Shown: positions 1,150 through 36,111 of the stretch, one piece after another
Position numbering within the stretch: the first letter of the stretch is position 1
How the letters are laid out: each line of letters begins with the position of its first letter
Assembly (NCBI GenBank): GCA_000091205.1
Contig: AP006491.2
Reading direction: 5' to 3' (one strand)
Source: Cyanidioschyzon merolae
Lineage: Eukaryota
Length of the DNA stretch: 64,000 nt
The notes under the pieces: model-generated
What the model was told of the DNA's origin: nothing
What the model saw: only the letters and a program-made list of their open reading frames with translations
The model's database searches: none
Position numbers and translations under genes: made by a program

Positions 1150-3350
1150 TAATTCCAGAGGACTAGGAAAAGAAGTGGAAACGAAATGGGGATGTGCTAC
1201 GACGAACGCTGCAGTAGTTTCGTGTCTATGTCGCTATGGTTGTGGAATCCTGTCGTCTCCAACATATTAATGTTCCGTACGACTGAACGCTCCAAGATGC
1301 AATCAGAAACCACGTTGTCTCGCTCTCCAGGAATATTTGTTACTCTCCTTTAGAACTGACGCATTTGGTGATCGAGCTCCATCGCGACGTAACGCACATC
1401 GCAAAAGTGATCTTTCCGGAACACTTTTTCAAAACAGAGTTTCATCTACCACCTGAATGCTTGCAATGGGGACGCATCGCGGGGAAACTAGCGGGCGGAT
1501 GCCTACGTCAAAATTTACGACAAGTACCGCATCAACGGTGCTGGACACAGGAGTGACGCAGATATTTACGAATACAGGGCAATTAGGTGCCTCAAGAATG
1601 TGAGGAACCATAGGATCCTCATCCTCGATTGTATCATGATACGCGTTGTCATTGTGCTGCACCCGGGCCTGTTTTGCGAAGGGATGCTGGCAATCATCGA
1701 TGGTATGAAGAACGATCGCCAGCATGAACAGGAGATCATATTTGTCGACAAGAGAACATCACACAGGAGAAGAAATAGGTATTCTGTTATCCGCGCAAGT
1801 ATTCAAAAGCGTCGTTCGGTCTCGGGACTTGTCAACCCAAGAGAAAAACCTGTCATGTATGGAAAATATGAAGAGAGATGTTCCTTCCTCATCTTGCCCT
1901 ACTTCATGGTTTTTGGATCGAGATCTCGAACGCAGGGCCGAAATGGAGCTGAGTATGGATACAATGGAGTATTGGAGAAATGGCACTGAAGAACTCCTCC
2001 AGTTGCGCTTTATTCGACCGGTTTTGCGAATTCCAGTCACCTGTTTTGATTTTTGACTTTAGAGTTCTTTTCGCCTTCATGGAAGAGGTTTATCCAGTGC
2101 CCGATTGAAGCGACAGAGACGTAACCGGCGAAGACCGGGACACGTACTAGATGCGGAAATTCGAGTTCAAGCGTGCAAAACCGGCGAATAAAAGGTAATT
2201 ATGGGGGCCATCGATAACGATCGGGTATACATATATGTACATTTTCAGCGGTTGCAGGTGCTTCGTCCCATCCCGTCTTCGTTACCGCCCTCGCCGAAGC
2301 ACGGAAACAGGAAGGCCGGCCATGGGATATATAATCCCCACGAGGACGACTTCGTCGTCGGCCTCAAACCCTGGATTACTGACTTCATTACCATCGTTGT
2401 AACAAGCGTTAGGTACATAATGTACTGAATGTAACTTACGTCGGAATGACAGGCGTCTTTTGAGGTTCTAGAGATCGACGTTCTACCCAGAAGCGGGAAT
2501 CGTGAATACGAGGAAGGAAATTGAGACTTGGGATGCAGAAGTGGAAGAGCATCTCGAAGTTGTGAGCGAGGTGAAGAGCCGAGGAGCGGATTTTCAGGCT
2601 TTTCAAGATTTCATGGATGTTCGTTTTGCTCATTGGGATGCGCTGTGGAAGGAGTATACAAACCCCCGGTGGGCTTTTCTACGTTCGAATCTATACTGTG
2701 GGAAGCCGCATGCATTCGCCGACTTTTTCAATGAGTTGAGCTCCTTGAAGGAGAATGAAAGTTTGAGGCTCGTAGTAGCATATTGAGCATGGAGCTGGGC
2801 GTCAAAAAAGGGGACTACGCGAGCTCCAGCGACAAGAACATTCAAAGAGTGTGCACGGCGTCTCTTTACGGTACCTGTAGATGAATTTGGAGCTTCGTAT
2901 ACACACCACGAGCTGGGGTGTACATTCCAGAGGGGCGAGATGCAAAAGTGCCAACGGAACCCTGAGGAAATAGCAAACTACGGACCGCTGACGGAAGAGC
3001 AAATGGAAAGGAGCGCAAAAGTTCATGGACTCCTTGCATTAGTAGGTACAACGAACGATGGCGAGAAACGGATGGAGTTCGTGAACCGAGGCTTTAACGC
3101 CGCTATCAGTATCAGTAGATGTGCGGTGCTGGAGAAGAGACCTGCAAACTAGACAAGAGACAACTTTGTTGGACAACCTCCCAAAGTCGAACTATATGAG
3201 AGAAAGTTGGAAGCAGTAGTGGGTGGCCGGTCGAAAACGGCGGGGAGGCGTCTGCACATCAGCTGGAGACGTTATGTCTCGGGCGCCGGTGGCCACTACT
3301 GTACACGGCCGGCGTCGTTCGACTTAGTACGGCGTTTCGCCGTGTACGCT
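1150..3350 (+). mobile_element. Copy D of the TnpB/Fanzor-like repeated element; degenerate, 5' portion diverged
   Basis: Nucleotide and protein similarity to copies A-C across the whole unit. RDVTHIAKV at 1365-1556 matches RDVTHIETVEIP of the other copies. GKWAI...DRKHE and VDKKTSRKRKNEASVIRA blocks are at 1600-1989. A RuvC-I remnant HEDDFVVGLKPW has lost the Asp. The [11 protein letters not shown] and LVVAY block is at 2502-2786. The zinc-finger and RuvC-III remnant (EFVNRGFNAAISI) is at 2940-3152. A conserved 3' tail runs 3200-3350 with its stop codon mutated, so the ORF reads through. Confidence 0.6.
1365..3283 (+). pseudogene. TnpB/Fanzor-like nuclease pseudogene (copy D); multiple frameshifts and stops, catalytic Asp codons of RuvC-I and RuvC-III mutated
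   Basis: Fragments lie in three frames. VDPG has become LKPW and RDFNAAINI has become RGFNAAISI. The terminal stop is lost. Confidence 0.55.
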
Positions 3351-5790: not shown

Positions 5791-5998
5791 GAAGCGTTCA
5801 AAGAGCGTTCTTTTTCAAAAAAAAACCTAAAAAAGGAAAGCTTTGAGAAAGCAAGCTGACGATCCTGGAGGGCTAGGGTCGCCGGCCGCTAGAGACAAAC
5901 AAAAAGCAGTGCCGAGTCCAGAAGAAAAGGAAGAGAAGAAGAACCGAAAGCGGGAGGCCCTACGTCGGAGGCGGCAAGAAACATGACTGTAGAACGAG

Positions 5999-8193
5999 AT
6001 GGAGGTGAAAACCTTTCTTCTTGGACATATCAAGGATCCCTACAGGGAAAAGTTGCGAGAAACTATCGAAAAACGTGTCGACTCGTACTCCAAGAGTATT
6101 GCCAAGGCGTCGTCAGGACTGATGCATATGGCGAGGGAGATGTATCGCGACGTAACGCACATCGAAACGGTCGAGATTCCAGACGAGCTTTTCGACAAGA
6201 CCTTTATTCGTCACTTGATGCTTGGCGCAGAGAAAGCGCCGAGGGAAAATGTGCTAGTGCATGCCCTCCACGAAAAACATCCCTTTTAGAGCTTCGACGG
6301 TACTCGATACACAATTGACTGGTGCATTTACACATACGGAGCGATGAAGTACATCACGAACCTGAAGAACCATTTGACTATGAACCTCGAACGCTTCATG
6401 ATACGCGCCGTGTTTGCGCTGTACCCTGGCATCGCTCGCAAAGGAAAATGGGCGATTACCAATGGCGTCACGAACGATCGCAAGCATGAAGATGCTATCG
6501 AGCTCGTCGACAACAAGACATCACGTAAGCGAAAGAATGAAGCTTCTGTAATCCGTGCGGCCATACACGAGTACCGTACAGTCTTGGGGTTGGCAAATCC
6601 GACAGACAAGATATCAGAGTTGAAAAAATATAAGGAATGGTACTATCGCCTCGTCCTGCGCTATTTTGTGTTTCTGGACCGAGAACTCGAACGCAAGGCA
6701 GAGGCGAGGCTGAGTGAGGAAAAAAATGAAGAGTGGGAGAGACGGAAGGCTTTCCTAATGGGTAAGCGCTTCAACGTCGTTCCAACGTGCAAGATCAAGT
6801 GACATTTGTGACTATCGACTCTAGAATCCTTCACGCCATCATGAAGGAGATCAGTCCGGAGTTCAGTGTCAGCAAGGAGAAGTTCTCCGGTGAAAACCGG
6901 GAGAGGTACTGGAAAAATATCTTCGATTTCAAACGCTTGAGAGTGAGCAAGGAAACGTTGTTCACCGGGATGTTTGAAACCGATGGAGTAGCCTAGTGTG
7001 TACACTATCGGCGGTTCAAGAAAGATCGTCCTGGTCCGCCGTCGGCTGTGCCCGTGACGAAGGATGAAGAAAAGAATGAGGCGGATCCTGCGACGCAGGA
7101 GGTGGAGGAGAACGAACTTATCTTTGACGCGGCGAATCATGAAGATGAGGAGGAGGCGGATCCTGTGACGCAGGAGGTGGAGGAGAACGACCTTGTCGTT
7201 GACGTGGCGAAGCATGAAGGAAAGAAGGAGGCGGATCCTACAATGCAGAAAGTGCAGGAGAACGACTTTGTCGTTGGTGTGGACCCTGGAAATACGAATA
7301 TCATAACCATCGCAGCACCCAAGCGCGCGGAAGATGGTGCTGATGGTAACTTGCGTCGGAAAGACATGCGTCTTTTGAGGTTCTCAAGAGCTAGATATTA
7401 CTGAGAATCCGGTGTAATGAATGCAAGGAAGAAAACCGAGAAATGGAATTCAGGAATGAAAGATCACCTAAAAGCTTTGAGCGAGGTGACGAGCCGAGGA
7501 ACCGACTTTGAAACTTTTCGGAAATTCATGGAAGATCGGTTTGCGCATTGGGATGCGCTGTGGGAGGAGTATACCATGCCCCGGTGGGCTTGTTTGCGTA
7601 TGAATTTGTATTGTGGGAAGCAGCGGGCGTTCGCCAACTTCTTCAATCAGTTGAGCGCCTTGAAGGAGGACCAGAGTCAGAGGCTTGTAGTAGCGTATGG
7701 GGCAGGCCGCTGGAAGACCCAAAAAGGAACTATGCCACCTCCAACGACAAGAACGCACAAGGAGTGCGCACAACGTCTCGTTACGATACCTGTAGACGAG
7801 TTCCGAACATCCTATACACACCATGAACTGGGATGTACACTTCAGAAAGTGGAGATGGAAAAGTGTTAGCGGAGCCCTGAAGACATAGCAAAGTACGGTC
7901 CTTTGACGGAAGAGGAAACGGAAAGGAGACCGAAAGTTCGAGGGCTACTCGCATAAGTGAATACAACTAACGGGAAGAAACCGATGGAACTCGTGAACCG
8001 GGACTTAAATGCCGCTATCAATATCCGAAAATGTGCGATGCTGGAGACGAGACCTCCAGAATGGACAAGAGAGAACTTTGTTGGACAACCTCTTGAAGTC
8101 GAACTATATGAGAGAAAGTTTGAAGCAGTAGTCGGTGGCCGGTCCAAAAAGACGGGTAGGCGTCTGCACGTCAGTTGGAGACGTCTTGTCTAG
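5999..8193 (+). pseudogene. TnpB/Fanzor-like RNA-guided nuclease homolog, copy A (RuvC-I, TS/zinc-finger block and RuvC-III present; several premature stops)
   Basis: MEVKTF...HEKHPF is followed by a stop. In-frame TGA codons occur at SRARYY*ESG (7399) and EMEKC*R (7867) where copy C has sense codons. [17 protein letters not shown] is at 7260-7330. [17 protein letters not shown] is near 7790. VNRDLNAAINIRK is near 8000. Confidence 0.75.
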
Positions 8194-14967: not shown

Positions 14968-17535
14968 CCTGGGAAATCGCGCAGTCAACTGACACGATGC
15001 GCGTGCCGCCGATGAAGGGAAACGTTGTCGTGATCAGTTACGTGTTGTTCTGCTGTAAACATCGGATTTCTGTTGAGGCCATAGCAAAATACAGTCTTTC
15101 GGTTCGGTTTTGTTTCAAACTTCAACCAAGTCTAGTAAAGTGCTTTCTCGCAGCATATAACAGAAGCGTTCATTGAGGGTTCTTTAAAAAACGAAAAACG
15201 GAAAGCTATGAAAAACCAGTCGACGATCCTGGAGGGCTAGGGTCGCCAGCCGCTAGAGACAAACAAAAAGCAGTGCCGAGTCCAGAAGAAAAGGAAGAAA
15301 AGAAGAACCGAAAGCGGGAGGCCCTACGTCGGAGGCGGCAAGAAACATGACTGTAGAACGAGATGGAGGTGAAAACCTTTCTTCTTGGACGTATAAAGGA
15401 TCCCTACAGGGAAAAGTTGCGAGAATCTATCGAAAAACGTGTCGACTCGTACTCCAAGAGTATTGTCAATGCGTCGTCAGGACTGATGCATATGGCGAGG
15501 GAGATGTATCGCGACGTAACGCACATCGAAACGGTCGAGATTCCAGACGAGTTTTTCGACAAGACGTTTATTCGTCACTTGATGCTTGGCACACAGAATG
15601 CACGGATGGAAAATGAGCGAATGCATGCCCTCCACGAAAAACATCCCTTTTACAGCTTCAATGGTACTCGATACAAGGGTGACCGGGATGTTTACGACTA
15701 TGGGGCGATGAAGTACCTCACGAACCTGAAGAACCATTTGACAGAGAACCTCGAACGTTCCATGATACGCGCCGTGGTTGCACTCCACCCGGGCCTGTCT
15801 CGCCAAGGAAAATGGGCGATTATCATAGGCATCACCAAAGATCGCAAGCATGAAGATGAGATCGAACTCGTCGACAAGAAGACATCACGTAAGAGAAAGA
15901 ATGAAGCTTCTGACATCCGTGCGGCCATACAAGAGTACCGTGCAGTCTTGGGGTTGGCAAATACGACAGACAAGATATCAGAGTTGAAAAAAGATAAGGA
16001 ATGATACTATCGCCTCATCCTGCGCTATTTTGTGTTTCTGGACCGAGAACTCGAACGCAAGGCAGAGGCGAGGCTGAGTGGGGAAAAAATGAAGAGTGGG
16101 AGAGACGGAAGCCTTTCCTAATGGGTAAGCGCTTCGACGTGGTTCCAATGTGCAAGATCAAGTCACATTTGTGACTATCGTCTCCGGCGTCCTTTACGGC
16201 ATCATGAAGGAGATCAGTCCGGAGTTCAGCGTTAACAGGGAGGAATTCACCTGTGAAAACCGGGAGACGTACTGGAAGAATATCCTCAATTTCAAACGTC
16301 TCAAAGTCAGCGCGAAAAAGAAATTCACTGGGATGCTCGAAACCGATGGAGCAACCATTTGTGTACACTATCGGCGGTTAAAGAAAGATCGTCCAGTCCC
16401 GCCCTCGGCTGAGTTCTCTGCGAAACATGAAGAAAACAAAGAAGCGAATCCTGAGACGCACAAATTGCAGGATGACGACCTTGTCGTTGGCGCGGTGAGG
16501 CATGAAGAATAGAAGGAGGCAGATCTTGCGACGCAGGAGGTGCAGGATAACGAACTTGTCGTTCCTGCGGACCCGGGGAATACAAATATCATAACCATCG
16601 TTGTGCCCAAGCATGCGGAAGATGGTACTGACGGCAACTTACGTCAGAAAGACACGCGTGTGTTGAGATTCTCGAGAGCGAGAAATTATCGAGAATCCGG
16701 TATAATGAATGCGAGGAAGAAAATCGAGACTTGGGATGCAGGAATGAAGGATCAAATGGAAGCTTTGAGCGAGTTGACTAGCCGACGAACGGACGTTGAA
16801 GCTTTTCGGAAATTCATGGAAGTTCGCATTGCGCATTGGGATGCGCGGTGGGAGGAGTATACAAAGCCCCGGTGGGCTCGTCTGCGTATGAATTTCTACT
16901 GTGGCAATCAGCGGGCGTTCGCGAATTTTTTTTAATAAGTTGAGCGCCTTGAAGGAGAATGAAAGTCAGAGGCTCGTAGTAGCGTACGGAGCAGGACGTT
17001 GGGCGTCGAGAAAAGGGACTACACCAGCTCCAACGACAAGGGTGTACAAAGAGTTCGCAAGGCATTTCGTTACGATACCTGTATTTGAGTTCCGAACATC
17101 GTATACACACCATGAGCTGGGTTGTATACTCCAGAGAGTCGAGATGGAAAAGTGCCTGCGGAGTCCTGAAGATATACAAAAGCACGTACCGCTGACGGAG
17201 GTGCAACTGGAAAGGAGGGCGAAAGTGCGAGGGCCTCTCGCATTAGTAAGTACAGCCAATGATGGCAAGAAACGTATGGAGTGTGTGAACCCAGATTTTA
17301 ATGCCGCTATCAATACAGGAAAAAGTGCGGTGCTGGAGAAAAGATCTCCAGAGTGGACAAGAGGGAACTTTATTGGACAACCTCTCAAAGTTGCACTATA
17401 TAAGAAGAAGTTGTAAGCAGTACTAGGTGACCGGTCCAAAAAGAAGGGGTGGCGTCTGCCCTTACTTGGAGATGTTTCGTCTAGGGCGCGGTTACAGCCA
17501 CTACTCTACAGCTGGCGACAGCGTTTTTTCTTTTG
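14968..17535 (+). mobile_element. Copy B of the TnpB/Fanzor-like repeated element
   Basis: Same 5' boundary and leader, with the TATA-like box at 15154. The N-terminal ORF 15363-16004 is uninterrupted over 213 aa. The conserved 3' tail is more diverged. Confidence 0.8.
15363..17416 (+). pseudogene. TnpB/Fanzor-like nuclease homolog, copy B (nonsense at KDKE*, frameshifts, RuvC-III NRD changed to NPD)
   Basis: TGA replaces TGG at about 16003. RuvC-I is [16 protein letters not shown]. The TS block is IPVFEFRTSYTHHELGC. RuvC-III is VNPDFNAAINTGK. Confidence 0.7.
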
Positions 17536-19491: not shown

Positions 19492-22400
19492 TCAAATGAT
19501 GTTCTGCACGTGTTGAATTCGAGGAACGACATAGAACCAACGACCGAATGCCGTCATATTCATCCCATTGTTCGTGCTAGATAGACCGCCGCTGCCACTG
19601 GTGCCTGAACCAGAAGTTCCGCTGCTGCTACCACTACCGTTGTCACTGGTGCCTGAACCAGAAGTTCCGCTGCTGCTACCACTGCCGGTGTAACTGGTGC
19701 CTGAACCAGGAGTTCCGCTGTTGCTACCACTGCTTGTGTCACTGGTGCCTGAGCCCAAATTCCCGGCTCTGCTGCTACTGCTGCTGACAGGGATAGCGGA
19801 TGTCTGCTCGATGATCCTATCCGGGCCTGAAGATGAAGTAGTTGGAGCATCGATACCTGTTCCAGGGCGGGGTGTTGACCCTAGACTGCTAAAAGTTGGC
19901 GGACTTATCGTGGTACGCATCGCTGGTGCGACTGCCCCCAGTGTGGATGAATGCGAGTTACGTTCTCCGCCGGGTTCCACATTGTCTAAAAAGGAGCCGC
20001 CAGAAGTGCTCGTTGTAATAACCGGAGTAAAGGGCGGTGGTAGTGTTGCCGTGGTCGCCACAGGTAGAGTGCTTACAGAGAGCGATGAGGCCTGTGATGA
20101 TGAGGGGGTCATCGACATCGCATTCATCTTAGCGATGTACGGAGATGGTGTGGGATGAACAACAGCTGGAGTAACCGTTGCAGTTGCTCTTGGAGCGCTT
20201 TCGGCACTATGGGTGCTGTTCCGCTCAGGTTCAGCAAAAAAGGCCTCAGAGACGCCAGACGATGCCGTGCCATTCGAGGTTGACGTACCCGCCTGGACGC
20301 ATACGCAAAGGTCGCCAAGGCAGACCTTGGCCAGGTTACCAGAACAGCTGCCGGTGGTCGTTACGCACCCGCAGATACCTCCCAATAGACATGTGTAGAC
20401 GACTCCTCCGGGGCACGTGGGAACCGAAGTAGACGAGGCCGTACTCGTCGATGTAGACGTCGACGTAGGCTGCGAAAATGACGGTGACGGTGTCGGTGTC
20501 CCCGCTTCAACACAAACGCACGTATCACCGACACACAACTTGACGAGGTTCCCAGGGCAGCTTCCGCTCGTTGTCACGCACCCACAGATATCACCCAACA
20601 GGCAGGTGTAGACGAGTCCGTCAGGGCAGGAAGCCGTCGTTGTTGGTGAACTCGTGCTCGTCGTTGTTGGTGAACTCGTGCTCGTCGTTGTTGGTGAACT
20701 CGTGCTCGTCGTTGTTGGTGACGTTGGCGACGGTGTCGGTGTTCCCGCCTCGACGCATACGCAGAGGTCGCCAAGGCAGACCTTGGCCAGGTTACCAGAA
20801 CAGCTGCCGGTGGTCGTTACGCACCCGCAGATACCTCCCAATAGACATGTGTAGACGACTCCTCCGGGGCACGTGGGAACCGAAGTAGACGAGGCCGTAC
20901 TCGTCGATGTAGACGTCGACGTAGGCTGCGAAAATGACGGTGACGGTGTCGGTGTCCCCGCTTCAACACAAACGCACGTATCACCGACACACAACTTGAC
21001 GAGGTTCCCAGGGCAGCTTCCGCTCGTTGTCACGCACCCACAGATATCACCCAACAGGCAGGTGTAGACGAGTCCGTCAGGGCAGGAAGCCGTCGTTGTT
21101 GGTGAACTCGTGCTCGTCGTTGTTGGTGAACTCGTGCTCGTCGTTGTTGGTGACGTTGGCGACGGTGTCGGTGTTCCCGCCTCGACGCATACGCAGAGGT
21201 CGCCAAGGCAGACCTTGGCCAGGTTACCAGAACAGCTGCCGGTGGTCGTTACGCACCCGCAGATATCTCCCAATAGACATGTGTAGACGACTCCTCCGGG
21301 GCACGTGGGAACCGAAGTAGACGAGGCCGTACTCGTCGATGTAGACGTCGACGTAGGCTGCGAAAATGACGGTGACGGTGTCGGTGTCCCCGCTTCAACA
21401 CAAACGCACGTATCACCGACACACAACTTGACGAGGTTCCCAGGGCAGCTTCCGCTCGTTGTCACGCACCCACAGATATCACCCAACAGGCAGGTGTAGA
21501 CGAGTCCGTCAGGGCAGGAAGCCGTCGTTGTTGGTGAACTCGTGCTCGTCGTTGTTGGTGAACTCGTGCTCGTCGTTGTTGGTGAACTCGTGCTCGTCGT
21601 TGTTGGTGAACTCGTGCTCGTCGTTGTTGGTGACGTTGGCGACGGTGTCGGTGTTCCCGCCTCGACGCATACGCAGAGGTCGCCAAGGCAGACCTTGGCC
21701 AGGTTACCAGAACAGCTGCCGGTGGTCGTTACGCACCCGCAGATATCTCCCAATAGACATGTGTAGACGACTCCTCCGGGGCACGTGGGAACCGAAGTAG
21801 ACGAGGCCGTACTCGTCGATGTAGACGTCGACGTAGGCTGCGAAAATGACGGTGACGGTGTCGGTGTCCCCGCTTCAACACAAACGCACGTATCACCGAC
21901 ACACAACTTGACGAGGTTCCCAGGGCAGCTTCCGCTCGTTGTCACGCACCCACAGATATCACCCAACAGGCAGGTGTAGACGAGTCCGTCAGGGCAGGAA
22001 GCCGTCGTTGTTGGTGAACTCGTGCTCGTCGTTGTTGGTGAACTCGTGCTCGTCGTTGTTGGTGAACTCGTGCTCGTCGTTGTTGGTGACGTTGGCGACG
22101 GTGTCGGTGTTCCCGCCTCGACGCATACGCAGAGGTCGCCAAGGCAGACCTTGGCCAGGTTACCAGAACAGCTGCCGGTGGTCGTTACGCACCCGCAGAT
22201 ATCTCCCAATAGACATGTGTAGACGACTCCTCCGGGGCACGTGGGAACCGAAGTAGACGAGGCCGTACTCGTCGATGTAGACGTCGACGTAGGCTGCGAA
22301 AATGACGGTGACGGTGTCGGTGTCCCCGCTTCAACACAAACGCACGTATCACCGACACACAACTTGACGAGGTTCCCAGGGCAGCTTCCGCTCGTTGTCA

Positions 22401-23553
22401 CGCACCCACAGATATCACCCAACAGGCAGGTGTAGACGAGTCCGTCAGGGCAGGAAGCCGTCGTTGTTGGTGAACTCGTGCTCGTCGTTGTTGGTGAACT
22501 CGTGCTCGTCGTTGTTGGTGAACTCGTGCTCGTCGTTGTTGGTGAACTCGTGCTCGTCGGCTTTTGGGTGGGCCTTGTGGTGCTTGTAGCGATCGAAGTT
22601 GGTTTCGATGTGGTGGATATGTTTGATACTGTAGTTGCGCTCAATACAGGACTTCTTACAGGTATCAACGTCGAGACTACGGTGATTAATGCTGTTGCAG
22701 ATGTTGAGACAACAGCGGTCCTTGAAGGCGGTACAGTAATTGTTTGCACCACCGTTGGTTCATGACTTGTTACAACCGGTGTTGGCGGTAGCGTCCGATG
22801 TACTGTTTGTGGCGGAGTTTGGGCCATATGGCTCTTCGTCGCCTCTGGAAATGGAGTCTGTTGAATTGGACGGGGCGTCTGAATAGGGAAAACCTCTACA
22901 CTACACGTTTCCGAGAGCAGCTTGCACTCATATGTGCAAAACTCGCCTAGAACTATGGAAGTCGACGTAGTGGATTCTTCACCATACGAAGACGTCCACT
23001 TTCTGCTTGTTTTCCAATCTAACTCATTCTGTCGTTGAACATTCCCTTTTTCATATACCGCTGTAGAAGACTTTGGACATATTTGCAGAGCCTCAAACTT
23101 TTGCACGCAAACCTTGCATGTGTTTTGGTATTTGTACTCCACACAAACTTCTACTGATTTGAAAACACATTCCTTCCTACATTTTTGAATATTTTTCTGC
23201 GGTGCTGCGTCTTCGAAAGTTGTGTCTGAGGTCCAACGACGTCTCCAAGTCACTTTTCCGTTCCAGGGACCACCATACTCGGGACTCTTTGTCTCAGGCG
23301 CTGCTGTTGTACAGACGATATTTTCTTTCGCACAGACCAATATATTTTCATACGCTGCGCACGTCTTTACTAAGCTACACGGCCCGACCACGGTCTCCGG
23401 CTCGCAGAACTGCCATCTTAGCCCGGAGCTCGTAAGCGATCTACTCTCTCCATCAGTTTTGATCGGTGAGCTCGCCTCTGTGGAGACGGTCAACAGTATC
23501 GCTTGTGCGATCGTAATACAGAGAATCACAGATAAAGTCCGCGTGAACTTCAT
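19492..23553 (-). CDS. Secreted mucin-like Ser/Thr/Pro-rich cell-surface glycoprotein with tandem Cys-rich repeats
   Basis: A 1353-aa ORF with a true ATG. The N-terminal signal peptide is MKFTRTLSVILCITIAQAILLTVSTEA. A Cys-rich N-terminal module follows. About five tandem units of roughly 150 aa each carry two 8-Cys modules (CPDGLVYTCLLGDICGCVTTSGSCPGNLVKLCVGDTCVCVEAG), separated by SPTTTSTS runs. The C-terminus is a Ser/Gly-rich 20-aa periodic tail. Confidence 0.8.
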   Translation of the reverse strand: MKFTRTLSVILCITIAQAILLTVSTEASSPIKTDGESRSLTSSGLRWQFCEPETVVGPCSLVKTCAAYENILVCAKENIVCTTAAPETKSPEYGGPWNGKVTWRRRWTSDTTFEDAAPQKNIQKCRKECVFKSVEVCVEYKYQNTCKVCVQKFEALQICPKSSTAVYEKGNVQRQNELDWKTSRKWTSSYGEESTTSTSIVLGEFCTYECKLLSETCSVEVFPIQTPRPIQQTPFPEATKSHMAQTPPQTVHRTLPPTPVVTSHEPTVVQTITVPPSRTAVVSTSATALITVVSTLIPVRSPVLSATTVSNISTTSKPTSIATSTTRPTQKPTSTSSPTTTSTSSPTTTSTSSPTTTSTSSPTTTASCPDGLVYTCLLGDICGCVTTSGSCPGNLVKLCVGDTCVCVEAGTPTPSPSFSQPTSTSTSTSTASSTSVPTCPGGVVYTCLLGDICGCVTTTGSCSGNLAKVCLGDLCVCVEAGTPTPSPTSPTTTSTSSPTTTSTSSPTTTSTSSPTTTASCPDGLVYTCLLGDICGCVTTSGSCPGNLVKLCVGDTCVCVEAGTPTPSPSFSQPTSTSTSTSTASSTSVPTCPGGVVYTCLLGDICGCVTTTGSCSGNLAKVCLGDLCVCVEAGTPTPSPTSPTTTSTSSPTTTSTSSPTTTSTSSPTTTSTSSPTTTASCPDGLVYTCLLGDICGCVTTSGSCPGNLVKLCVGDTCVCVEAGTPTPSPSFSQPTSTSTSTSTASSTSVPTCPGGVVYTCLLGDICGCVTTTGSCSGNLAKVCLGDLCVCVEAGTPTPSPTSPTTTSTSSPTTTSTSSPTTTASCPDGLVYTCLLGDICGCVTTSGSCPGNLVKLCVGDTCVCVEAGTPTPSPSFSQPTSTSTSTSTASSTSVPTCPGGVVYTCLLGGICGCVTTTGSCSGNLAKVCLGDLCVCVEAGTPTPSPTSPTTTSTSSPTTTSTSSPTTTSTSSPTTTASCPDGLVYTCLLGDICGCVTTSGSCPGNLVKLCVGDTCVCVEAGTPTPSPSFSQPTSTSTSTSTASSTSVPTCPGGVVYTCLLGGICGCVTTTGSCSGNLAKVCLGDLCVCVQAGTSTSNGTASSGVSEAFFAEPERNSTHSAESAPRATATVTPAVVHPTPSPYIAKMNAMSMTPSSSQASSLSVSTLPVATTATLPPPFTPVITTSTSGGSFLDNVEPGGERNSHSSTLGAVAPAMRTTISPPTFSSLGSTPRPGTGIDAPTTSSSGPDRIIEQTSAIPVSSSSSRAGNLGSGTSDTSSGSNSGTPGSGTSYTGSGSSSGTSGSGTSDNGSGSSSGTSGSGTSGSGGLSSTNNGMNMTAFGRWFYVVPRIQHVQNII
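19560..19800. repeat. 60-bp periodic repeat encoding the Ser/Gly-rich C-terminal tail of the mucin-like protein
   Basis: The 60-bp unit ggtgcctgaaccagaagttccgctgctgctaccactaccgttgtcactggtgcctgaaccagaagttcc is repeated. Confidence 0.7.
20180..22560. repeat. Coding tandem array, period 432-480 bp, about 5 units, with a nested 24-bp minisatellite (ggtgaactcgtgctcgtcgttgtt, 2-4 copies per unit)
   Basis: Identical antisense ORFs recur at 20417, 20873, 21305, 21785 and 22241. Unit length varies with the 24-bp copy number. Confidence 0.9.
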
Positions 23554-26500: not shown

Positions 26501-27689
26501 AGCTTCAAGAATGAGTCCTCGTACCCCGGAATCTCGAGCGTAACCAGTTCCATTGTCTTCAGAGTCGAAGTCCAGCCCCCAAATGAGGTAAAGTAGGTGT
26601 CGGAGTCCCCTAAAACACGCCCTGATTGTCTCCTTCTTCGAGACCTCCTGAGACCTCTAACGCAGGCAAAGGTAGTGCGGGTGCGCCCCAGGCACACAGC
26701 AGCACTGCTCTCTACACAACTTGGAATAAGCTGTTTTACGTGGCACCGCACAACAGCACGTCACTCGTGTTCAACAAAATCAGAGCGGCGTCGCGCAGAG
26801 AAAAAGGAAAGAGAATGTACTGATGATGTAGTGTGTGTGGTACTTGTGCGCAAATGTCTCGATTATCCTGCCTGCACAGACGTGTCCCATGAGACGCAGG
26901 TACGGTGCGACCCGCCGCAGCGAGAAGCCACACCACGGCGCCGACGGTGGCCGCAGCAGAAAGTGTCGTTGCGCTGCACTCCGACAGCGCTGCTGAGCCC
27001 CGTGTGAGGACTCGCGAGGCCGCGGCGGGTGCCCCTGGACCACCCTCTCGAGCCAACGAGTGTCCCATAACGCCAGCAACGGCAACTCCAACGTTGCCAA
27101 AACCGTTGTTGCTGCGGGACGCACCCGTGCCTACAAGGAACAACGTTTGCAGTCGCGCGCGATTGGCGCGCCTTGGTAGGAACGTTCAAAGGAGTCGGAT
27201 GCCGGCAAGTGATTCCCATTTCGATGACAAAACGTTTCCATGAACCATGGATCCCAGTTTGCGGAATGGGTATTCGTAATCGAAAAAAAAGGTTCATCAT
27301 GCGGCAACTACCTGCATGTTCCATGAACCATATATCCTCTCGGATACACTGGTCGTTTCGTGCGCTCTATCGTGTGCCAGTTGTCTGCCTGGCTGCACTC
27401 GCAAAAGCAGTCATACCGCTGGAGCAGATGCAGCACGGAGACAGAACGGCTATGACATACCACTCAGGGCATCGACTCGATGCTTGGTTCATCCGAGACC
27501 GATGCGGAGTACATAATCATTCTGGGAGCCCGCGACAGCGCGATGCGACATACTCAGAGTGCCCTGTGACCAGGGCGTCGCTCCACACGCAGCATCATGC
27601 TCCTAGTCCGAGTTGCGTTGCGGACGAGCTGCGTAGGTCTCGTCAAAACACCAGCCACTGGAGGAAGCCCGAAGCACTAGCCAGGCAGA

Positions 27690-28200
27690 CTCACACGGCT
27701 CGTGGGACCTTCCGCCTAAGCGGTAAACGTACAAAGATACGGGAACTATTCCCCCCTTCAACGCTTACTATCAAGGTCGAGCGAAACGATTGTCGAGTTG
27801 CGAGTCAGTGGTTAGTTTCCGTTCTTTCGGCAACGTGTCGTGATTCGTTATCATTCTCGGAGCCTGCAAGCTGTACAGACAGACCAATTGCCTTCAGCAG
27901 CGCGAAGCGATATACAAGGAGTCATCTTCGACCAGTGCGACGCACACTTGCAGCATACCCGCTCCTGGTCCCAGAAAAATCTGTTTTTCGGACGAGTAGC
28001 TCAGATCTCAACGCAGCATCTGCCAATGCAAAGTCCCACGGAGCGCAAGCCCCGCAGGCTCGTCCGGCTCGCGGGACCTTCTGCCTGAAAGGTAGGCTTT
28101 CTAACATACGGAAATACTTTTCCCCTTTCAACGTTTGTTGTAGAGAGGGAACGAAATCGTTATATCGTTGCTGGTGAATTGTGAGTCTCTGTTCTTTGTT
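27690..28200. repeat. Two copies of a roughly 140-bp segment about 360 bp apart, upstream of element copy C
   Basis: The segment at 27700-27830 is cggctcgtgggaccttccgcctaagcggtaaacg...gttagtttccgttctttcgg. The segment at 28060-28200 is cggctcgcgggaccttctgcctgaaaggtaggc...gagtctctgttctttgtt. Confidence 0.6.
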
Positions 28201-28619
28201 TTAAATAGCGCTGTCGATTTGCGCACCTGGGAGATCTGGTAAGCACGTGGCACGACTCAAATGCCGCACTTCAAGGAATACGAAATCGTGGCAGCATCTG
28301 TTCTTGTTGCTGTACCGTACAAGTTGTATTTGCGTTGCAGTCACACAAAAGTATAATTTTTCAGTTCATTCATGTTTCATACCTCAAACAAATGTATTCT
28401 AGTGTTTTTGTGCAGTACATAGCAGAAGCGTTTAGTGAGCCTTCTTTCCCAAAGAAACTAAAAGAGGGAAGTTATGAAATTGCGACTCGACGATCCTGGA
28501 GGCCCAAGGTCGCCAGCTGCTAGAAAAAAACAAAAAACAGTGCCGAGTCCAGAAGAAAAGGAAGAGAAAAAGAAGTAAAAAGGGAAGGCCCGACGCCAAT
28601 GCTTGCAAGAAAGACAACT

Positions 28620-30898
28620 GTACGACGAGAAGATGGTGAAAACTTTCCTTCTTAGACATATCATGGATCCCTACAGGGAAAGTTGCGAGAAGCTATCAAA
28701 AAACGTATCGAGTCGTACTCCTTGAGGATTATGAAGGTTTTCTCAGAAGTAATGCATTTGGTGAAGGAGATGTGTCGCGACGTGACGCACATGGAAACGG
28801 TCGAGATTCCGGACAAGTTTTTCGATACGACCTTTATTCGTCACCGGATGCTTGGTACAGAGGAAGCGCGGAAGAAAACGAGCAGGTTCTTGAACTGCAC
28901 GAAAAACATCCTTTTTACAGCTTTGAGGGTACTCGATACAAGGGTGACCGGGATATTTACATGTACGCGGCGATGAAGTACATCACAAACCTGAGGAACA
29001 ATTTGACAATGAACCCGGAACGTTTCATGATCCGCGCAGTGGTTGCACTCTATACGGCGCCTATCTCACAATGGAAAATGGGCAATTATCAAAGGTACCA
29101 CGAAAGGTCGCAAACGTGAAGACGAGATCGAACTCGTCGACAAGAAGACATCACGTAAGAGAAAGAATGAAGCTTCTGTTATCCGTGCGGCCATACACGA
29201 GAACCGTGCAGTCTTGGGGTTGGCAAATCCGACAGACAAGATATCAGAGTTAAAAAAGATAAGGAAAGATACTATCGCCTCGTGCTGCGCTATTTTGTGT
29301 TTCTGGACCGAGAACTCGGACGCAAGGCGGAGATGAAGCTGAGTGAGGAGAAAAATGAAGAGTGGGAGAGACGGAAGGCTGTCCTAATGGGTAAGCGTTT
29401 CGACGTGGTTCCAATGTGCAAGATCAAGTCACATTTGTGACTATCGACTCTAGAATCCTTCACGCCATCATGAAGGAGATCAGTCCGGAGTTCAGCGTCA
29501 ACAGGGAGGAATACTCCAGTGAAAACCAGGAGACGTACTGGAAGAATATCTTCAATTTCAAACGCCTCAAAGTGAGCAAACAAAAGGTATTCACTGGGTT
29601 GAACGAAACCGATGGAGTAGCCTTGTCTATACACTATCGGCGGTTGAAGAAAGAACGGCCAGTCCCGCCCTCGGCTGCGCCCGTGACGAAGGAAGAAAAA
29701 AACAAAAAGAGGATCCTGCGACGCAGGTGGTGGAGGATAACGAGTTTGTGGTTGACGTGGCGAAGGATAGGGATGAGAAGGAGGCGGATTCTGCGACGCA
29801 GGAGGTGCAAGATAATGACCTTGTCGTCGACGCTGCGAGGCATGAAGATGAGAAGAAGGCGGATCCTGTGATGCAGGAGGTGGAGGGGAACGACCTTGTC
29901 GTTCGCGCGACGAAGCATCAAGAAAACGAGAAGGCGGGTTCTGAGAAGAGGAGGTGCAGGATAACGACTTTGTCGTTGGCGTGGACCCTGGGAATACGAA
30001 TATCATAACCATCGCTGCTCCCAAGCGTGCGGAAGATGGTACTGACGGCAACTTACGTCAGAAAGACATGCGTGTTTTGAGGTTCTCGAGAGCGAGATAC
30101 TATCGAGAATCCGGTATAATGAATGCGAGGAAGAAAATCGAGACTTGGAATTCAGGAATGAAAGAGCACCTGGAAGCTATGAGCGAGTTGACGAGCCCCG
30201 GAGCGGATTATGAAGCTTTTCGGAAATTCATGGATGTTCGTGTTGCCCATTGGGATGCAGTGTGGGAGGAGTATAAAAAGCCCCGGTGCGCTCGTTTGCG
30301 AATGAATCTATACGGTGGGAAGCAGCGGGCGCTCGCGAACTTTTTCATTCAGTTGAGTGCCCTCAAAGAGGATCAAAGTCAGAGGCTAGTAGTATCGTAT
30401 GGGGCAGGGCGCTGGGCGTCGAAGAAAGGGACTACGCCAGCTCCTACGACGAGGGTGTACAAATATTGTGCATGGCGTTTCGTTATGATACCTGTAGACG
30501 AGTTCCGAACGTCATATGCACACCATGAACTGGGATGTACACTTCAGAGAGTGGAGATAGAAAAGTGTCAACGGAGCCCTGAGGAAATCGCAAAGTACGG
30601 ACCGCTAACAGAAGAGCCAATGGAAGGGAGGGCGAAAGTTCGAGGACTACTCGCACTGGTGAGCACAAAGAACGATGGCAAGAAACGTATGGAATTCGTG
30701 AACCGAGACTTTCACGCCGCTATCAATATCAGGAGATATGCGGTGCTGGAGAACAAACCTCCAGAGTGGACAAGAAAAACCTTTGTTGGACAACCCCTCA
30801 AAGTCGAACTATATGAGAAAAAGTTTGAAGCAGTCGTGGGTAGCCGGTCGAAAAAGACAGGGAGGCGTCTGCACGTCACCTGGAGACGCAATGTCTAG
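28620..30898 (+). pseudogene. Full-length TnpB/Fanzor-like gene copy C with 1-nt indels in the acidic-repeat region
   Basis: The frame is lost at [14 protein letters not shown], where copy A reads [15 protein letters not shown]. It is lost again at [14 protein letters not shown] before [13 protein letters not shown]. Confidence 0.6.
29954..30898 (+). CDS. TnpB/Fanzor-like RuvC nuclease core ORF (314 aa, uninterrupted in this copy); the upstream part of the same protein is frameshifted in the acidic repeat
   Basis: RuvC-I is [49 protein letters not shown] and [28 protein letters not shown] align to the TnpB wedge, YKae and V.P.YTSq.C blocks. RuvC-III is [17 protein letters not shown]. The C-terminal tail is basic. 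Confidence 0.7.
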
Positions 30899-31749
30899 GG
30901 CGATTTTCCCGCCACCGCTGTACACGGCCAGCGTCGTTCGACTTTCGAAAAGCGTTGTTGGTGTGTGCGTGCGAGCTCGCGGGCGCAATGAAAAGAAAAA
31001 CACAACAAAACGAACACGTCGCAAACTATTTATTCAAGAACAAGTATCTTAAAGCCCCACCAACCACGCCCGCCAGAGAGGTGTAATTTTTCCGGAGAAG
31101 CTCTGAAATTGGGTTAACAGGGGGTGTTTGGGCGACGGGGAAGGAAGCCCACGCCAGGGACCTTGACCGCAACGAACAGTGGGGCGGAGGCAGTAGCACC
31201 AGAAAATATGGATGAAAATTCTGAGCAGACATCCGCCCCTCCCGAAACAACGCTGCAGGTTCGGGCGCAAATCCTGGACCCATCCTCGAACTCAAGCTCA
31301 GGATTACCTCCTACCTTGTTCCCTACCTCAACTTTGGAAACAATCTAGGCGGATACTTTGGAAGACGGCTGGCAGCATGTTCGCGGTCGAAGCCGGAATA
31401 AGCGACTTGCCCGCCTATGTGTCTGGGGAGCGGATACGAAGCCGCTGAAAGGGTGGTTTGCAGAGTATTCCCAGTGGTTGAGGGGAGGTTAAAGCGTCGG
31501 GCAATAAAAAGGTCGCATTCGAATCGACCTTGACTAATGTACTTCTGATTCTACGCTAGCGCTGCGGCAGACACTCAATGAACGACTGGAATGCAGGAGG
31601 CGCTGGTGGCATGTACGCTCACACATACCGCGGAGGGTGCGTCTAAATCGACGGCGTATCTCTTGAGTACTGCAGCGCTACTCCAATTCCCTTACGCGCT
31701 ACGACTCAATAGGTTGCGCATCATGGAATGTTAGCGGGATCGCCTCGAA

Positions 31750-34700
31750 TCTAGACTAAGAGATATCGAATTACTAGTAGAGTAAAGAGGAACAGATACA
31801 ACTGGAGGACTCTACAACAGGAAAAGAGACCCAACCAGATACGGAGAAGGAGACACAGGAACCTCATGATCCACCTAGATGCAAAATATCCAGAGAAAGC
31901 AGCTCGGCAAAAAGCCCGAAGAAGAAGAAGACCAACAAGAAAAGACAGAAGAATAGAAAAAAGAACTCCCAAACGAGTCCATCACAAGTCATTTCCCGAA
32001 AGAGCACCCCAGCGGGAACTCAAGAAAGCCGTCGCCAAACCCAGTCACCTACTCACAGCGCTGAAGATCCGAAAAGCCATGAATACAAATCTTTAGACCA
32101 ATTGGCATGCGAGTTTATAGATGGGAATCAGAAGATCGCCAGAGAGCTGGGACTGCTTGCACCAGAACGCAATAGTTGCAAACCTCAGTACCTGAAACGA
32201 CGTACCAATACTCGGATTGATGAATGCCGCCGACTTAACAAGATCGTCAACCGCACCGCCATACGCGCCAACGCGGGAGACAAGGAAGCGAAGGCAGCGC
32301 TACCGGCGCCACAGGCGCAACATGAAGAAGCTATCAAAAGAAAGAAGAAACTTTCCAGAGAAAACAAACGAGAGGATCGAAACCACAAAGTCGCCTCCCT
32401 GGCGAAATCTATGCTAGAGAGCATCAACGAAGATGAGACCTGGTGCTCCATCCGATCGAGACTGGACCCACCAAAAAAGTGCCTGGGGCTCACACCAATC
32501 GTTTATAAGGAAGCGCTGAGGACGGAGCGTGCCTCAGTGAATGAGGCCTGGACGGACCACGGGCCAGAGCTGCATGAAGACGCAACTGGGCACTGCCGAA
32601 ACCGAATCTATTGGCACCAGTATGCCGCAGAACTACCGCGCCTCGAACCGGTACCGGAATGGGACGACCCAATCCTCTGACCTGAATCTGTCCGGACCCT
32701 GCTACGCTCAAGCAACCGCAAAACACCTGGCATCGAAGGTATCGCGACGGAGTGGATGAAACTGGTGACCCCAGAAGACGGGACAACAGGGACACCATCG
32801 ATACCAAATGAACCTGACACAATCTTAGGCAAACGCCTTCTGGAGCTCATCCAACGCACGTTTGAAGAAGCGTATATCCCGAATGTATGGAGGACTGCCG
32901 AGGTCGTACAAATCCTCAAAAAGGACTCCAAACCCCACAGACATGAACAACTACCGGACTATGCGCCTCATCCCGTCAATCATGAAGCTACTTTGCGCCA
33001 TGCTCACGAACCGGATCCAGAGGCGCCTCCAGGAGCGCAAGTTCTTCGCCCCAGAACAGGCTGGATTCCGGAGCTGCGAGGAGTGCATGAGCCATGCCCT
33101 GACCTTCATGGAAGTGGCGCAACGTCGCTTCATTAGCGACCAACAACCAGCTTACGTATGCTTCATCGACTTCCAAGAGGCCTTTGACACGGTCCCGCAT
33201 GAGGCTCTATTTCTCAAGATGGAACGAGCCGGAGTCTCCAGAAAGTGCTTAGCGTTCTTCCGTGCGCTCTATGCAGACTCGTGGATGCGCATCCGACTGG
33301 GCGATGGCTCAAGAATCCCTTCGATAAGGATCTGCCATGGACTGCGACAGAGCGACCGCGCATCCCTGCTCCTTTTCAACATCTTCATCAACGATCTGCT
33401 GAACAATTGCAGACAATACGGGCTTGAGGTGCCGTGGATAGGCTGTGGAGATGCCCGATGAGGAGCGCCCACATAGAAACCGCCTCGCAGGCCGTCTATT
33501 TGCGGACGATGTCGTGCCGTTGGCACCCGCCCCGGAAACGCTTGCGACTAGCATGGAACAAGTCAGCGCCTGGGCCGATCGCTGGGTTATGAGCATAGGA
33601 GCATCGAAGTGCGGCGTCATGGCCATCCATGGAGACTCGCAGAGCATTCGCAATCGCTCGTGGCGGTTGCAGAATCAGGAAATTCCGATCGTGGAAACAT
33701 ATCGCTACCTGGGGGTCTGTCTCACGCCGACGCTCGACGAAAAGGCACACGTTGACGAGATGATCGCCAAGATGCATAGAGGTACAGCGATCGCACGCCC
33801 ATTCCTATCCGATCCCTCTATCCCCTTAGCAATCCGTACGAGGGCGCTAAGGATGTGTATCATCCAGCCTGCGTCCTGGGGTGCTGGGTGGTGCGGCATG
33901 AAGCACACAAATGCCTCGCGTCTGCAGGCAGCCGCCAACAGGGCAATGCGACTCGTTGTTGTTGGGTGCTCAGTACAGAGCAGAGCAACCAACCTGCCTG
34001 GCACTCGGACTTGAACTCCAAATACCCTCGACAGAGGCGATAGCAGCAGGCTGCCGGGCACATGTATGGGCCAAAAAGCCCACTGTGCGCACCAGGTTCA
34101 GTCGGAGTTTCATGCAAACCCCAACGCACCGCAAGATCACTTGGATGAAATCGACGCATATTTGGCTGAAGCGCCTCTTGGGCGAAAACACGCTCCCCAA
34201 TCGTTCCCCAGGAATGTACAAGGCTCCCGCCGCCTCAAGCGAACGGTCCAAACACCAATATGGGAACGTAGACACGGTACCAGTCGCGCTAGTAACGCCG
34301 GCTTGACTCTATACCGGAACTACAACCTAACATACACACGCAAGTACTGGTAGAAAGCGCTGGAATTCCCGGGACTTGCTCGAGGTACCCAGTGGCTCGC
34401 CAAAATCAGCGTTGGTGGCTCCTGGCTACCAGCACCGGCTCTAAGCCGGATAGGAACACTGGAACCACACTGGGAGTCACACTGTCCCTGCTATCGAGAC
34501 GAAATCCCCGAGACGCTGACATATTTACTGTTACAGTGCCCGCGCTGGAAGCAGGAGCGCAGCGAGCTCCTCGAAGGACAGCAGCAGCTCGGCAACACCG
34601 TGATAGTCGAAGGCCGGACATTCACTTTGAGTGCAGCACTGGCAACTGATGGTCCGGTAACGGAGCCTCAGCGCTCATGAGTGGCGAACAAACTCACATG
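31750..34700 (+). mobile_element. Degenerate, 5'-truncated non-LTR (LINE) retrotransposon
   Basis: RT motifs lie in three shifted frames. They are IPNVWRTAEVVQILKK, NNYRTMRLIPS, QAGFRSCEEC, FIDFQEAFDTVPHEAL, GLRQSDRASLLLFNIFINDL and LFADDVV. The C-terminal Cys motif HCPCYRDEIPETLTYLLLQCP is at about 34470-34540. No endonuclease domain is detected. A basic K/R-rich stretch lies at 31866-32096. Confidence 0.75.
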
Positions 34701-36111
34701 CTACCTTCTAGGCGGAAGGTCCAGCGGATCGGATGCGCACACGGGCCCAGTGCGCTCTCTACGCCTACCCACTGTGGTGGGTGTCAAGCACAAACCCGCA
34801 TAGCCAACCGACAACAATGCATTCCATGCATGATCACGAAGGAGAGAGGCGGCTCCCAGAATTCATCCTAACAACCAAGTTTCTCCAGCGTGTCGTGCAG
34901 CGAAGGCAAGCCTGCATCCGCAGACTGTCCGAGCACAATCTGACGACGAATCCCAAGTCTACGTCGGATGAACCACGCCTCGAGCCGATGCCCTCTGGGG
35001 TATAGAAAAGCCGTTCTAGCTCGATGAACTATCAGCTCCAGCGGTTAAGTTCCAAAGTCGTATGATTAGGTTAGGTACTAGGCACACCCGATAGGACGTA
35101 TGAAACGACCAGAATATCCGAGATCAAGTATAGATAATGTAACTTGGAGGTAGGTGGTTTGATGGATGCCTCGCCGCGCAATGAAAACATAACACAAAAA
35201 AGTAAGAAAAGAAAAATGCGCATAATCGGAGAAACCTGGCCTATGGAAACGTTTTGTCCATGAAACAAATCTCGCCCGCAGGCGCAAATTGAGCTCGTGC
35301 GCGCCCGAGCTCGCCTAATGTTCCGGGTAGCTCGCCGAAACACGCTTGCAGCAGCTCTGTACCGCAAACTTAAAGCGTGCAGACAGCTCAAGAAGTACCT
35401 CTAGCCTTTGTGGAGCAGGTACGCGTTGTCTAGGTAGGCAGTCCGTTTGCGGTCGGCCTCGAACGCCAGACCAATAAATCAGTGTGTGCTCCGAACTGGT
35501 GCGCCTGGTCTCCGGAATCAACAAAATCCTTTCAAAGGTAGCGTGTAAAGTGCTGGCGGTCCACTAGGTCAAGGTGTTGCGTCGGGAAGCGCCCTGATAT
35601 CGGAGGTTTCGCGTAAGTAGGCGGTGCCTGCTGCTGCAGAAGAGGGCAGCGCTCGGGCGTGTGTCAGACAGTGCACAGCTGCAGCTCGGACCTGTGGTGA
35701 CGCTCGCGAACGATTGCAGCCATTGAAGCCATTGTCGCGACACCCAGAGCCGATCTCAGGGCCAGACTCTCTACCGCAGGCAAGGGAGCGCTACCAACAG
35801 GCACTTCGTCGGTGCTGTCGGGACACCGTTTCACGGAACGGCAGCGGCCGTAGCGTCCATTGACGGAAACCTCGAGTTCAAGAAGACGACTGCTCGGACA
35901 ACCTTCGCGTGTTCGCCGGCTCGTTTGCGTATGAAGCTTTGCCTCGACGAGAGAACCTCTAAGCATCGCCCTTCTAGATCTGTTTCTGGATCAATCGAAA
36001 AGTACCCGTGCATGCTTCTAGAAGTTCGCCGCGAGCGGTGTTTTCCTCTTCAGCCTGGATCGCAAACTCGATCTCTCGAGGTCCGCTACAGCGAACGCAC
36101 TGTTGTTGTTG

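Follow-up and report, generated by a model that had tools for sequence, protein, structure and literature searches.

A probable remnant of the Fanzor1 protein CMe-1, with an ordinary relocated RuvC-II glutamate and a lost C4 zinc finger

In all Fanzors, the canonical RuvC-II glutamate is replaced by glycine or proline, and an alternative glutamate lies approximately 45–50 residues downstream. Related prokaryotic TnpBs ('TnpB2' or pro-Fanzors) also have a relocated glutamate, and the substitution E467A abolishes cleavage by ApmFNuc (PMC10530073, PMC10711439, PMC11832414). In the rearranged TnpBs the glutamate has moved from β4 to β5, as in RuvX (PMC10691335). Yoon et al. define the alternative glutamate as lying six residues ahead of the zinc finger (PMC10711439), and Bao & Jurka (2013) reported two extremely conserved Fanzor1 residues, G500 and E536, 36 residues apart (PMC3627910). 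For SpuFz1, cryo-EM structures show that D383, E541 and D606 coordinate Mg2+ (PMC10432273, PMC11423790).

The element family to which the present locus is compared is already known, having been published in 2013 by Bao & Jurka. CMe-1A is represented by approximately 150 copies, each about 80% identical to a 3169-bp consensus, lacks terminal inverted repeats and encodes a 734-aa protein; a further element, TE-N2_CMe, is reported to share its 5' part (PMC3627910).

In the current study, an ORF was analysed within a window (the whole stretch of DNA examined, 64,000 nucleotides) which has the appearance of an intron-poor eukaryotic genome. The GC content is 46–62%, and long ORFs consisting of a single exon specify Utp14, a copper amine oxidase, a band-3/HCO3 transporter and an asparaginase. 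Contigs identical to that of the window are also present in JGI metagenomes. Rfam and tRNA scans of the window were both empty. We consider, with a probability of about 0.85, that the ORF represents the C-terminal half of a CMe-1 copy which has decayed to a pseudogene, CMe-1 being the Fanzor1 protein found in the non-autonomous CMe-1A transposons of Cyanidioschyzon merolae or a very close relative. Comparisons by tblastn, blastn and MAFFT revealed four degenerate copies, all on the + strand, of an element of approximately 2.7–3.7 kb. These copies, designated A–D, and the ORF are as follows.

1155–3278, + strand: coding remnant of copy D, the most diverged, in which the RuvC-I Asp is replaced by Asn and the RuvC-III Asp by Gly
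5843–8190, + strand: coding remnant of copy A, with one frameshift and at least three stop codons
15210–17458, + strand: coding remnant of copy B, with several frameshifts; it reads VFEF and NPDF at two of the motifs discussed below
27222–30957, + strand: whole element of copy C, CMe-1A-type, with a TE-N2_CMe-like 5' part, the broken coding sequence and a conserved 3' tail
28474–30898, + strand: coding remnant of copy C, a broken Fanzor1 coding sequence
29954–30898, + strand: the ORF, 314 aa with a GTG start, comprising the RuvC and degenerate TNB half of copy C (CMe-1 residues approximately 411–734)

The ORF is real but does not represent a gene, comprising the C-terminal 43% of a broken 734-aa coding sequence. 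It lacks the WED domain and the REC half and therefore cannot function alone. It is 84% identical over 324 aa to the published CMe-1 protein, to which copies A and B are 71–79% identical, and residues 1–734 of CMe-1 are colinear with each of the four window copies. In the published CMe-1A consensus, the first 630 bp match 27222–28191, upstream of copy C, at 74–80% identity. These matches fall at 27222–27819 and 27837–28191, an internal partial duplication in copy C, and stray fragments of the same CMe-1A 5' part were found in the window at 34963–35169 (− strand) and 311–420. The 5' part shared with TE-N2_CMe (approximately 635 bp) is absent from copies A and B, which may therefore belong to another subfamily. 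A search of the element ends for terminal inverted repeats found none, in agreement with the published family (PMC3627910).

Two further features of the neighbourhood were recorded. Copy C is closely followed by a run of broken ORFs; within it, a match to Pfam RVT_1 (E=3e-15) at 32862–33461 (+ strand) marks a reverse-transcriptase fragment, probably from a degenerate non-LTR retrotransposon. Between CMe-1 copies B and C there is an uninterrupted 1353-aa ORF (19492–23553, − strand) with no Pfam domain.

The motifs that had been quoted in the preliminary description of this DNA are present in the ORF in the region concerned, where the ten-residue β4 string occupies 30386–30415 and the His/Cys segment 30521–30568. 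Together with the TNB remnant between them, they are arranged as follows.

29984–29992, + strand: RuvC-I motif D11-P12-G13, with the catalytic Asp (CMe-1 D431), aligning to SpuFz1 D383
30383–30403, + strand: strand β4, RLVVSYG, with G150 (30401–30403) at the canonical RuvC-II Glu position
30494–30505, + strand: VDEF, in which E183 (30500–30502; CMe-1 E603) is the relocated RuvC-II Glu, aligning to SpuFz1 E541
30521–30703, + strand: degenerate TNB/zinc-finger remnant, with ligand positions H190, L193, L235 and T238
30701–30712, + strand: NRDF, in which R251-D252 (30704–30709; CMe-1 D672) is the RuvC-III motif, aligning to SpuFz1 D606

Copy A reads LVVAYGAGRW in the β4 region, as does copy B, where this is followed by YTHHELGCILQRVEMEKC; copy D reads LVVAY*AWSW, with a stop codon within the motif. 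There is no acidic residue of any kind in the β4 strand. [quoted passage not shown]

Conservation was assessed outwith the immediate family. A search of 1.84 billion cluster representatives yielded 1419 relatives at E of 1e-3 or better, many of them intact proteins of 580–740 aa. The ORF was aligned with 89 full-length distant relatives, taken as cluster representatives at 50% identity, and a profile was built from a related alignment of 94 sequences (A2). RuvC-I is strongly conserved amongst the 89 (D in 87, P in 82 and G in all), and R251 and D252 of RuvC-III are each found in 86. In β4 the relatives read (V/I)(V/I)AYG(S/A)AKF, with glutamate never present; position 150 is glycine in 88/89. 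E183 is present in all 89 distant relatives and is the sole invariant column of A2. Conservation within the family gives a different picture, as conservation of the catalytic and His/Cys residues does not exceed the 88% background. The copies are decaying, so conservation at the level of the average site is to be expected there, and it is uninformative about the catalytic residues.

Neither Pfam scans, run on the ORF and on family members, nor a single-sequence phmmer search against the PDB gave a match. The A2 profile, by comparison, matches all three solved Fanzor1 proteins, PpFz1 (E=1e-19), SpuFz1 (4e-13) and GtFz1 (3e-7). It places D11, E183 and D252 on SpuFz1 chain residues 777, 935 and 1000, which are 158 and 65 residues apart and can thereby be identified as D383, E541 and D606 in native numbering. 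G150 aligns to the conserved glycine of SpuFz1 VVMGDW; this glycine and the glutamate downstream of it are the pair that Bao & Jurka had singled out as G500 and E536. E183 is followed by FRTSYA and then H190, so that the glutamate stands six residues ahead of the first zinc-finger ligand position, in agreement with the definition of Yoon et al. The [TS]-[TS] pair (T186-S187) and the RuvC-III RD (R251-D252) of the Bao & Jurka motif are both present, and the spacing from D11 to T186, at 175 residues, lies within the 125–275 range.

Modelling of the ORF with AlphaFold2 on the basis of A2 gave a confident structure, with a pLDDT of 88.2 and a pTM of 0.84. In the model, a strand at 144–150 ends at G150, a second strand at 177–181 (β5) leads directly into D182-E183, and a helix at 251–264 begins at R251-D252. 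The modelled placement of G150 and E183 matches the RuvX-like rearrangement. Between β3 and β4 are helices at 86–107 and 110–135 (pLDDT above 95), which form the long-helix pair of REC2 inserted in RuvC that Yoon et al. regard as a hallmark of Fanzor1. The top Foldseek matches of the model are SpuFz1, PpFz1 and GtFz1 (E approximately 1e-10, TM 0.5–0.59). The ORF is thus similar in both sequence and fold to characterised Fanzor1 proteins, as membership of that group demands.

The catalytic site is an ordinary Fanzor arrangement and not a special one. The earlier suggestion of a Fanzor1-type site whose glutamate comes from another position, with VDEF as a possible source, was correct, and the search for a conserved glutamate at the canonical RuvC-II position leaves that reading standing. 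The alanine or serine to which the missing glutamate had been assigned is residue 148; β4 does lack a glutamate, but the equivalent residue is G150. The site had also been called unusual, which it is not, since a relocated glutamate is the defining feature of all Fanzors and related TnpBs. The ancestral 734-aa protein would most likely have been a Fanzor1-type DNA endonuclease guided by ωRNA. D11 (in DPG), E183 (in VDEF, at the end of β5) and D252 (in NRD), or D431, E603 and D672 in CMe-1 numbering, would together form its one RuvC active site, and G150 occupies the slot of the RuvC-II glutamate of canonical TnpB and Cas12.

All four copies are interrupted by frameshifts or stop codons, and no intact full-length ORF was found amongst the window copies or 36 related metagenome loci; nothing here can be active today. 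The history of the protein before this decay can be approached through the divergence between copies. Pairwise Nei–Gojobori dN/dS has a median of approximately 0.25 in the RuvC half and is 0.4–0.6 in the N-terminal half, with dS between copies of approximately 0.5; these low ratios indicate that most of the divergence arose while the protein was under selection. This agrees with the observation of Bao & Jurka that the CMe-1A family was unusually slow to lose its coding capacity (PMC3627910).

These data bear on two other accounts of the odd residues. One, offered in the preliminary description, is that the family derives from Fanzor but lost its RuvC-II glutamate and never replaced it, which would leave a catalytically dead protein that binds DNA under RNA guidance. 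No copy has the glutamate in β4, and CrFNuc-1, another algal Fanzor1, forms a ribonucleoprotein and gave no cleavage in vitro (PMC10530073). However, active Fanzors show the identical 'loss' in β4, the invariant E183 aligns to a residue of proven catalytic function in SpuFz1, and D11 and D252 are kept in 86–87 of the 89 relatives. The purifying selection on the RuvC half also argues against family-wide inactivity, and we consider this account very unlikely. Exapted inactive TnpBs are recognised by the loss of a catalytic residue with no conserved compensation; here all of D11, E183 and D252 are conserved. The other account would attribute the unusual residues to mutational decay of the copy C pseudogene alone. 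All four copies are indeed pseudogenes, and copy C has private changes such as A148S and C262Y, but the AYG strand, VDEF, HHELGC...KC and LLAL are found in the 120-member family consensus and in the published CMe-1 consensus, and AYG and VDEF recur in distant intact proteins. Moreover, no intact CMe-1 copy was seen with a β4 glutamate and CxxC pairs, and decay of this one copy has scarcely any likelihood as the explanation.

The zinc finger differs from that of the solved Fanzor1 proteins. No CxxC pair occurs anywhere between VDEF and NRDF. The four ligand positions, mapped by means of the pattern E-x6-CxxC...CxxC of Yoon et al. and the SpuFz1 alignment, are occupied as follows.

Ligand C1: H190 in the ORF; H in 38 and C in 9 of the 89 relatives
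Ligand C2: L193 in the ORF; D or T in the relatives
Ligand C3: L235 in the ORF; C in 66 of the 89
Ligand C4: T238 in the ORF; T in 75 of the 89

Both knuckles are absent in 87/89 relatives and both are kept in one only (P0246), and 60 of the 89 have at most one cysteine between the glutamate and the RuvC-III aspartate. On the aligned sequences, the C4 finger is truly lost, a loss common to a large CMe-1-like clade of Fanzor1. Since P0246 retains the C4 arrangement, the loss is derived within the family and gives no ground for exclusion from Fanzor1. The TNB fold between E183 and D252 presumably holds without zinc, and the ancestral protein would likewise have lacked the metal at this site.

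The preliminary description had proposed that an HH...C...C module takes the place of CxxC...CxxC. The absence of the C4 finger is borne out; a new zinc site formed by H190/H191, C195 and C205 is improbable. In its favour, H190 lies exactly at the first ligand position (E-x6-C1), where His is the residue in 38/89 relatives, H190 and C195 recur together in the nearest small subclade (P0124, P0127, P0138 and P0156), and the window family has lost C235 and gained C205. In most relatives, however, C195 is replaced by Thr or Ser and C205 by a gap, so that the two cysteines are specific to the family, and P0123, the closest full-length outgroup, has neither. According to the modelled secondary structure they also flank a seven-residue β-strand (198–204), which would hold them too far apart to share a metal. 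The ORF has no match to PF07282 (TNB; OrfB_Zn_ribbon, the TNB C4 finger), which matches some distant relatives, in each case below threshold.

Other cysteines of the clade were also considered. Cysteine is found at the positions equivalent to ORF residues 172, 235 and 262 (30467–30469, 30656–30658 and 30737–30739), each in approximately 75–80% of the zinc-finger-less clade and in the contexts KEC, LLWC and NIRRC; copy C reads C, L and Y. Pairwise comparison gave no signal that these three cysteines occur together. A metal site formed by H190, C235 and C262 was rejected, as these residues do not co-occur amongst the relatives.

Loss of C4 across a whole clade is at odds with the way Fanzor was originally defined, with this motif as 'strictly conserved', and this is the only point here which is mildly new. 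In the 2013 data set, CMe-1 was apparently the sole member of the zinc-finger-less clade. It is possible, and we suggest it tentatively, that CMe-1 is the founding member of a large Fanzor1 clade which lost C4 naturally and is still intact, selected and presumably active. No report of assays of a CMe-1-like, zinc-finger-less Fanzor was found in the literature.

Sequences on either side of the RuvC and TNB half also show structure, as follows.

29711–29978, + strand: 75-bp tandem repeat (25 aa, acidic), 3.6 copies, immediately upstream of RuvC-I
30899–30957, + strand: conserved non-coding 3' tail past the stop codon, approximately 60 nt; similarity amongst the copies ends abruptly near 30957

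In copies A–D a GGCG...CGCC hairpin, the loop of which varies, lies in the 3' tail ahead of CCACTACTGTACA. RNAalifold predicted hairpins in the 3' region, with no covariation. By analogy, the tail is a candidate for both the end of an ωRNA scaffold and the right end of the element, in which case the guide would start there.

Each unit of the 75-bp repeat duplicates the lead-in to the RuvC-I strand (NDFVVG), which places the repeat directly at the edge of the catalytic core. Approximate equivalents are found at 7053–7275 in copy A and 16418–16565 in copy B. The number of 25-aa units varies, from 3.6 in copy C and fewer in A and B to one in the published consensus and up to approximately seven in database relatives.

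Copies A, B and C have a 1-nt deletion in common (TTTT to TTT), which breaks the frame at KSH|FVTID (approximately 29428–29436 in C, 6790 in A and 16155 in B); all other family loci are in frame here. Despite this deletion, the three differ by a dS of approximately 0.5, with a dN/dS of approximately 0.25 in the RuvC half, and dS between A and B is mosaic, rising from 0.15 in the N-terminal part to 0.50 over the RuvC half. The shared deletion and the mosaic dS suggest gene conversion between neighbouring copies, not simple descent from one dead progenitor. An intron near 29434 was rejected, as the sole GT...AG candidate is approximately 32 nt long and would delete the conserved FxVVP motif. A programmed frameshift at the same place was also rejected; no slippery sequence is present, and the other family members have TTTT and are simply in frame.

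The relocated RuvC-II glutamate is a textbook Fanzor signature and in itself matters little as first put forward. The lost finger has practical consequences, in that surveys or searches requiring CxxC...CxxC will undercount the CMe-1-like clade. This clade could reveal whether cleavage is possible with a TNB domain that is smaller and free of zinc; should its proteins be active, RNA-guided cleavage in this lineage does not require the zinc finger. In any reconstruction of CMe-1 as an editor, mutations should be directed at D431, E603 and D672, not at the alanine or serine of β4.

Compared with the published CMe-1A of C. merolae, the window elements are alike in size (approximately 3 kb), in the approximately 80% identity of copies to one another, in the lack of terminal inverted repeats, in the TE-N2_CMe-like 5' part and in the intron-poor host genome of 52–60% GC. 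They differ in that the window copies are individually degenerate, and copy C has 3.6 units of the 25-aa repeat, whereas the published consensus has one, and carries the private substitutions A148S and C262Y. SpuFz1, PpFz1 and GtFz1 (PDB 8GKH, 9CF0 and 9CER) share the RuvC fold, DPG, glycine at the old glutamate position, the relocated glutamate ahead of [TS][TS], the RuvC-III RD and a long helix pair inserted in RuvC. In contrast, their NUC/TNB domain retains a CCCC zinc finger, where the window family has H/L/L/T and the clade consensus is H/D/C/T, and sequence identity is only 10–19%. The TnpBs with a rearranged RuvC-II (TnpB2, RIIr clades and pro-Fanzors) have likewise moved the catalytic glutamate from β4 to β5, as in RuvX, and some large branches of TnpB also show a lost or mutated zinc finger (PMC10691335). 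Unlike the proteins described here, these TnpBs are shorter prokaryotic proteins linked to IS200/605 or IS607, and they lack the Fanzor1 REC and REC2 insertions.
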